Positions 36,483 through 36,619 of a DNA stretch of 64,000 nt are shown piece by piece. The stretch lies in the NCBI RefSeq assembly GCF_048403405.1, contig NZ_CP183129.1, one strand, 5' to 3'. A program made the translations under genes and the position numbers. The stretch's first letter is position 1; every line of letters begins with the position of its first letter. The notes under the pieces are model-generated. The model saw nothing but the letters and a program-made list of their open reading frames with translations. It was not told the DNA's origin and searched no databases. The stretch is from Escherichia coli. GTDB taxonomy: Bacteria; Pseudomonadota; Gammaproteobacteria; Enterobacterales; Enterobacteriaceae.

Positions 36483-36569
36483 ATGACTCACATCGTTCGC
36501 TTTATCGGTCTACTACTACTAAACGCATCTTCTTTGCGCGGTAGACTGGTGAGCGGCATTCAGAATTAA
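36483..36569 (+). CDS. leuL: leu operon leader peptide LeuL (28 aa) with four consecutive Leu codons
   Basis: [28 protein letters not shown]; cta x4 run; sits inside the 63-aa track ORF 36378..36569. Confidence 0.9.
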
Positions 36570-36593
36570 GTCAGCACTCAGTCAAACAAAAAA

Positions 36594-36619
36594 CCCGCGC
36601 CATTGCGCGGGTTTTTTTA
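36594..36619 (+). terminator. leu attenuator terminator
   Basis: Stem cccgcgc-cattg-cgcggg followed by a run of 7 T, between leuL and leuA. Confidence 0.88.

Follow-up and report, generated by a model that had tools for sequence, protein, structure and literature searches.

The stretch of Escherichia coli DNA analysed here (the window, 64,000 nt) carries, directly upstream of leuA, what is almost certainly leuL together with the ribosome-mediated transcription attenuator of the E. coli leuLABCD operon. This reading is built on the sequence elements present in the window, on membership of curated families, and on predicted, mutually exclusive pairings and their conservation; nothing was found that counts against it, and there are only caveats, which are given with the results that they concern. 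The original prediction had recognised a classic leucine attenuator upstream of leuA, and this identification is borne out by an RNA family model (RF00512), two leader peptide models (PF08054 and NF007397), the gene that follows (NF002084) and the annotation of identical DNA in the E. coli TUM14771 chromosome. The attenuator had also been called intact, and indeed the start codon, Shine-Dalgarno sequence, control codons, stop codon, pause element, pairing strands and T tract are all present, with open reading frames of the sizes of leuABCD downstream. The leuL attenuator is already known, and in the window it is complete and ordinary.

Two checks had been proposed along with that prediction, a search of Rfam and a prediction of alternative antiterminator and terminator pairings, and both gave the expected outcome. 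The Rfam Leu_leader model (RF00512) matches the + strand at 36469-36618 with 143.1 bits against a gathering score of 50 (E = 2.2e-31), and the match is full length (model positions 1-148 of 148). The span given originally, 36483-36619, does contain the elements that were named, but it ends one base past the T run and starts too late: the functional unit begins upstream of 36483, with the Rfam match starting at 36469, the Shine-Dalgarno sequence at 36471-36474 and the promoter at 36420-36449. Coordinates of all features are collected in Table 1.

Table 1. Features of the leu leader, its substitutions relative to E. coli K-12, and neighbouring genes, in positions of the window.
Feature	Position	Strand	Basis or remark
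Candidate leu promoter, -35 hexamer TTGACA	36420-36425	+	Read from sequence
Candidate weak -10 region GTAACTCT	36442-36449	+	TAACTC inside, 17 nt after -35
Leader transcript, ~160 nt when terminated	36456-36618	+	Putative 5' end; 3' end at T tract
Shine-Dalgarno GGAG	36471-36474	+	Read from sequence; leuL ATG 8 nt downstream
leuL leader peptide ORF with TAA	36483-36569	+	28 sense codons; PF08054 and NF007397 matches
Control codons, CUA x4 (leuL codons 10-13)	36510-36521	+	Consecutive Leu codons
Pause hairpin CGCA-(7 nt)-UGCG	36524-36538	+	MFE fold; 4 pairs invariant in 13 leaders
Putative RNA polymerase pause element	36541-36551	+	G-10 = 36541, Y-1 = U36550, G+1 = G36551
Predicted protector helix	36506-36548	+	36506-36514 (CGGUCUACU) with 36540-36548 (GGUAGACUG); MFE fold
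Predicted middle helix, extending the protector	36497-36556	+	36497-36502 with 36551-36556 (RNAalifold)
Predicted outer helix	36469-36581	+	SD/ATG region 36469-36484 with stop-codon region 36565-36581; MFE fold
Predicted antiterminator (preemptor)	36536-36600	+	GCGCGG 36536-36541 with CCGCGC 36595-36600
Predicted attenuator terminator hairpin	36588-36617	+	GC core and A-U extension
T run (U tract), exactly 7 T	36612-36618	+	Read from sequence
Substitution GA>TG (K-12 > window)	36547-36548	+	R22L
Substitution C>T (K-12 > window)	36560	+	Silent
Substitution C>A (K-12 > window)	36564	+	H28N
Substitution C>T (K-12 > window)	36571	+	Past leuL stop codon
Substitution G>T (K-12 > window)	36578	+	Past leuL stop codon
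leuA, 2-isopropylmalate synthase, 523 aa	36662-38233	+	First regulated gene
leuB	38230/38233-39324	+	Uninterrupted ORF, 363/364 aa
leuC	39327-40727	+	Uninterrupted ORF, 466 aa; annotated at matching place in TUM14771
leuD	40738-41343	+	Uninterrupted ORF, 201 aa; annotated at matching place in TUM14771
leuO, LysR-type regulator, divergent neighbour (context, outside the attenuator)	34880-35824	-	NCBIfam NF007063, 572 bits
SgrS	41377-41603	-	Rfam, 229.8 bits

The genomic setting is that of the E. coli leu operon. The leader and its surroundings, 451 nt in all, match the TUM14771 chromosome with 100% identity, and the sequence is annotated there as leuL and leuA (the leuL product being WP_032141177.1); the locus is present in 5,399 of 5,426 complete E. 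coli genomes. The leuA ATG (36662) lies 43 nt past the T run of the leader on the same strand, and the product scores 1047.5 bits against the equivalog-level NCBIfam model NF002084 (cut-off 748) and contains the Pfam domains HMGL-like and LeuA_dimer. The next gene we take to be leuB from its position and its N-terminal sequence, and the lengths of the four products are those of LeuA, LeuB, LeuC and LeuD of K-12. The coordinates of the divergent leuO were also mapped onto the window from the TUM14771 annotation.

Downstream of the operon, we note that setA is missing, such that the end of leuD (41343) is only 33 nt away from the 3' end of SgrS. In K-12 this 1,179-nt sugar efflux gene sits between sgrT and leuD, and TUM14771 lacks it as the window does. 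An Rfam match to 'sok antitoxin' (of the hok/sok type) lies between the leu operon and SgrS in two Enterobacter loci (L087, 7513-7663, - strand; L056, 8293-8441, - strand), and no match to this family is found in that interval of the window. Further along there is an ORF of 189 aa at 43570-44139 (- strand), between sgrR (41650-43329) and a TPP riboswitch (44380-44479) with thiB (44498 onwards); in K-12 the gap between sgrR and the riboswitch is only about 30 nt. Its counterpart in TUM14771 is annotated espY2, 'T3SS effector EspY2', and 43570-44139 looks like a small strain-specific insertion with an effector gene.

A putative promoter lies upstream of the leader. In upstream regions from 12 enterobacterial species the motif GTTGACA on the -35 side is invariant in the alignment, as is the -10 pattern GTAnCnnT; position and conservation together suggest that 36420-36449 functions as the leu promoter, with TAACTC as the putative -10 hexamer. 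The 5' end of the leader would then be near 36456, about 7 nt past the -10 region. This agrees with the K-12 leuL transcript start, 27 nt upstream of the ATG. A simple promoter and terminator consensus scan of the + strand missed both the leu promoter and the terminator of the attenuator. The promoter was likely missed because its -10 (TAACTC) is weak and lacks the required T at position 6, and the terminator (36588-36618) because maximal extension of the A-U stem consumes the T tail. These misses reflect a limit of the scan and are not evidence against either element; a negative result there does not mean absence. More generally, such a scan seems to overlook terminators in which an A tract is able to pair with the U tract.

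The leader transcript carries a predicted leader ORF with a ribosome binding site and a start codon, as an attenuator of this type should. The original prediction described a 28-codon leader with four consecutive CTA leucine codons, and the sequence agrees: the ATG at 36483 is the first of 28 sense codons, the TAA stop codon occupies 36567-36569, and the CTA codons are numbers 10 to 13. The peptide scores 68.9 bits against Pfam PF08054 (cut-off 25) and 76.6 bits against the NCBIfam model NF007397, 'leu operon leader peptide' (cut-off 59); its 46.2 bits against the sister model NF011328 fall below that model's cut-off of 63, as expected for a different subfamily. In a 13-sequence alignment of leaders the ATG is invariant, GGAG or GGGG is kept at the Shine-Dalgarno position in most, and the leucine codon run CTACTACT is invariant in 13 of 13. 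All 13 leaders encode peptides of 26 to 32 aa, each with three or more Leu codons in a row (most of them CUA), and residues other than the Leu run and an NA..LRG motif differ freely among genera. The control codons stand out within the window as well. The motif (CTA)4, with at most one mismatch, occurs once on both strands of the 64 kb, compared to 0.03 occurrences expected from dinucleotide-preserving shuffles, and across 25 long ORFs of the window no Leu codon is rarer than CTA (31 of 1,265, or 2.5%; CTG accounts for 60%). The leu leader is described in PMC1183508 as the paradigm for the use of rare control codons, and the same article cites Carter et al. (1986) for a Salmonella leader in which changing CUA to CUG lowered the sensitivity to leucine limitation.

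Within the leader ORF lies a hairpin (36524-36538) that is the one listed for the K-12 leuL pause (PMC9291695, supplementary file 2), and a putative pause element follows it, as is expected of an attenuator; pausing itself is known from K-12. The published K-12 pause 50-mer ends in ...GGTAGACGAGTG, and the window has ...GGTAGACTGGTG, ending at 36551. The Y-1/G+1 register given in Table 1 comes from our own fit of the G-10/Y-1/G+1 consensus to the K-12 50-mer. On the K-12 sequence the leuL pause was measured in vitro, with a 1.7-fold enhancement by NusA (PMC9291695).

The leader RNA is predicted to fold far more stably than expected by chance: the fold of the 166-nt leader has an energy of -58.5 kcal/mol, compared to -33.9 +/- 3.0 kcal/mol for shuffled sequences (z = -8.2), and none of 200 shuffles is as low. 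In the MFE fold the protector encloses the small pause hairpin. Its 5' strand overlaps Leu codons 10 and 11, and its 3' strand contains GGUAGAC; it is thereby predicted to sequester the 5' strand of the antiterminator while overlapping the control codons, the arrangement required of an attenuator. Across the 13 leaders 91% of protector cells are paired, with one compensatory pair (UA to CG), and for protector and pause hairpin together the figures are 91-100%; RNAalifold recovers the protector independently. The middle helix is found by RNAalifold with compensatory double changes at three pairs (UA 4/CG 4, CG 6/UA 4 and UA 5/CG 5), and the single-sequence MFE favours a shifted register in which 36493-36500 pairs with 36549-36556. 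The outer helix belongs to the Rfam consensus structure and has moderate support, with 64% of cells paired in the 13 leaders; it may serve to block re-initiation.

Downstream of leuL an intrinsic terminator is predicted ahead of leuA, in the place where an attenuator should have one. The sequence after the leuL stop codon reads AAAAAACCCGCGC-CAUU-GCGCGGGUUUUUUU, which gives a GC core of 7 bp (CCCGCGC/GCGCGGG, 36594-36600 and 36605-36611), a CAUU loop (36601-36604) and an A-U extension (36588-36593 and 36612-36617), with a predicted energy of -19.7 kcal/mol. Both the GC-rich hairpin and the run of 7 T described originally are thus found as stated, the run being of exactly seven. The core strands CCCGCGC and GCGCGGG are invariant in 13 of 13 leaders, as are the 7 T (alignment positions T144-T150).

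The alternative to this terminator is an antiterminator that encloses an inner helix at about 36544-36551 and 36575-36583. Its 3' strand, CCGCGC, is part of the terminator 5' arm, so the two pairings exclude one another; an antiterminator that competes with the terminator in this way, a defining property of attenuators, is here predicted in silico. All six pairs of its core are invariant in 13 of 13 leaders. The switch between the two was modelled on transcripts ended at 36601 or 36604, before the terminator 3' arm, with a 30-nt ribosome footprint masked. When the ribosomal A site is on Leu codon 10 or 11 the MFE structure of the ended transcript contains the GCGCGG:CCGCGC pairing; with no ribosome, or with a ribosome at the stop codon, the protector is present and this antiterminator pairing is absent. 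The terminator 5' arm is wholly free when there is no ribosome, and a ribosome at the stop codon adds two to three incidental long-range pairs. A ribosome-dependent switch is predicted in all 13 leaders, with 6 of 7 bases in each. With the same 30-nt footprint masked at codons 12 and 13 the fold contains no antiterminator; the size assumed for the footprint therefore affects the outcome. In an equilibrium fold of the complete leader with a ribosome masked the terminator persists and the switch is not reproduced. For the free 3' half the terminator state is at -30.5 kcal/mol and the forced antiterminator at -18.7 kcal/mol, a gap of about 12; since the terminator wins at equilibrium, the choice would have to be made kinetically, in the course of transcription, in line with the classic model, and static folding of this sort cannot prove a kinetic switch.

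The comparative sample sets bounds on how the conservation is to be read. The genome collection was scanned with the pattern AACGCATN{5,9}GCGCGGTA, which proved too permissive: it returned at least 120 loci, mostly chance matches in unrelated phyla. An Rfam screen of 14 Enterobacterales loci among the matches listed yielded 11 leaders that match Leu_leader over its full length, at 99-148 bits (E. albertii, two from Citrobacter, four from Enterobacter, and one each from Klebsiella, Yersinia, Serratia and Mixta); a Salmonella leader was not recovered among the matches listed. The sample is small, and it favours leaders in which the search motif is retained. In the 13-sequence alignment GCGCGGTA is invariant along with the pause hairpin, and both strands of that hairpin are in the search pattern, so its conservation is partly the result of selection. 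The same holds for the invariance of the antiterminator 5' strand, which is also in the pattern; the antiterminator 3' strand and the terminator lie outside it. Covariation counts on the structures derived from the window do not rise above shuffle controls in the 13 leaders, because most of the key pairs never vary; such pairs show conservation rather than covariation and speak neither for nor against pairing. The informative evidence on pairing comes down to a control in which partner strands were slid (83% paired, compared to 37-45%) and to the middle helix found by RNAalifold.

A plausible scenario for the operation of the attenuator is as follows. Transcription would start from the promoter at 36420-36449, and RNA polymerase would pause at about 36550, just past the hairpin at 36524-36538, while a ribosome begins translating leuL. 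With charged tRNA-Leu plentiful, the ribosome would pass the four rare CUA codons, and behind it 36506-36514 would pair again with GGUAGACUG (36540-36548) as the protector, keeping GCGCGG (36536-36541) occupied. The terminator 5' arm would stay free, and CCCGCGC/GCGCGGG with the U7 tract would end transcription at about 36618, before leuA. With leucine scarce, the ribosome would stall on the CUA codons and cover the 5' strand of the protector; GCGCGG would be freed and could pair with CCGCGC (36595-36600) once that strand emerges, such that the terminator is pre-empted and transcription continues into leuABCD. That polymerase pauses, that the outcome depends on how far tRNA-Leu is charged, and that the steps follow one another kinetically in this order is drawn from the literature or is our own inference. 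For the leaders of Salmonella and E. coli, a rise in read-through as charged tRNA-Leu becomes limiting is an established result (PMC1183508, PMC9291695).

Other explanations of the same sequence can be considered. The hairpin and its seven T could be an ordinary intrinsic terminator at the end of a gene, possibly a bidirectional one, next to which a short ORF happens to lie. The A6 and T7 tracts that flank the hairpin do make it terminator-like on either strand, and short ORFs are common (99 of at least 20 aa in 6 kb). No gene ends at the hairpin on either strand, however, leuO being divergent and leuA starting 43 nt downstream, which excludes an end-of-gene terminator; moreover the short ORF passes the cut-offs of two curated leader peptide models, its ATG, Leu run and frame are conserved in the 13 leaders while flanking codons vary, and RF00512 spans ORF and terminator as a single unit. 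We regard this explanation as extremely improbable. No greater weight can be given to the idea that the true product is an ORF of 63 aa (36378-36569), of which the 28 codons would form the C-terminus. A mechanical ORF list gives this longer frame, which has an in-frame ATG at 36378, but that codon precedes the conserved -35/-10 region (36420-36449) and would consequently be absent from the leader transcript. The upstream part of the 63-aa ORF is also poorly conserved between genera, whereas its internal ATG (36483) does not vary and has GGAG 8 nt upstream, and it is the 28-aa product that is annotated in RefSeq.

A different proposal is that the terminated 160-nt leader RNA, or the 28-aa peptide, also acts in trans. 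There is a precedent in the trans-acting trpL of Sinorhizobium, as reported in PMC6614838 and PMC7298713, in another organism and for another operon, and a very stable fold is predicted for the terminated leader. The data presented here nonetheless indicate no target in trans, and the free variation of the peptide outside the Leu run and the NA..LRG motif is what would be expected if only the act of translation matters. A role in trans is very unlikely, if a little less so than the two previous proposals, and it would add to the attenuator explanation without replacing it.

Among other features of the window, we note several Rfam matches on the - strand. PssrA, 'Plasmid-encoded Shigella sRNA A', matches at 14878-14967 (-) with 105.5 bits, at the junction of ORFs of 420 aa and 383 aa that correspond to ftsA and ftsZ by size and by position in the cell-division cluster. 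This match is chromosomal in spite of the name of the family, and it overlaps the start of the downstream ORF. STnc40 matches at 9162-9231 (-) with 81.7 bits, overlapping the 3' end of an ORF of 901 aa (9207-11912) that is of the size of secA; the match ends in a hairpin and a U run and is probably the terminator of that ORF. A naRNA4/CssrE match nearby (8569-8646, -, 67 bits) is, at a guess, a REP-type repeat.

The presence of an intact attenuator implies that this strain controls its leucine biosynthesis by attenuation in the normal way. This is a textbook amino acid attenuator, found in essentially every E. coli genome and represented by curated RNA and protein models, and the value of identifying it lies in correct annotation; its differences from K-12 provide a small data point of natural variation for modelling the set-points of attenuators.

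The allele in the window is a minority one. Genomes with at least 99% identity to it over the 171-nt leader number 102 of 5,399 E. coli (about 2%), and over the 451-nt stretch around the leader (36250-36700), where the identity to K-12 is 95.3%, only 7 of 5,399 reach at least 99%. The intergenic region between leuO and leuL at 36040-36240 is very A+T-rich and carries most of the divergence from K-12. Six substitutions distinguish the leader from that of K-12, all within 32 nt; the elements affected are the protector (in its 3' strand), the pause element, the antiterminator (in its inner helix) and the outer helix. Of the 10 leaders from other genera, 8 likewise have CTG at codon 22 (L22), which is therefore not an oddity. 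Predicted energies are -38.2 kcal/mol (window) and -35.4 kcal/mol (K-12) for the protector state, and -18.7 and -19.9 kcal/mol for the antiterminator; shifts of 1-3 kcal/mol are within the error of the method, and no functional conclusion is drawn from them. It is conceivable, though on balance unlikely, that the minority allele sets a different attenuation threshold from the common one, in basal leuABCD expression or in sensitivity to leucine.

Apart from these substitutions the leader closely resembles E. coli K-12 leuL, with the same place between divergent leuO and leuA, a leader ORF of 28 codons and the same four CUA codons, and with an identical Shine-Dalgarno sequence, pause hairpin, protector core, antiterminator core, terminator and T7 tract. 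The experimentally dissected model for such a system is the leu attenuator of Salmonella typhimurium (Carter et al. 1986; Bartkus et al. 1991; both as cited in PMC1183508 and PMC9291695). It shares with the leader in the window the consecutive rare CUA codons, the choice among protector, preemptor and terminator, and a site towards the end of the leader ORF at which polymerase pauses; it differs in belonging to another genus and in the sequence of the leader peptide outside the Leu run. A more distant relationship is seen with the enterobacterial leaders trpL, hisL, pheL, thrL and ilvL. In each of these a short ORF rich in cognate codons couples the position of the ribosome to the choice between antiterminator and terminator and is synchronised by a polymerase pause (PMC1183508, PMC9291695), whereas the control codons, the amino acid and the operon are different, and each has an Rfam family of its own.
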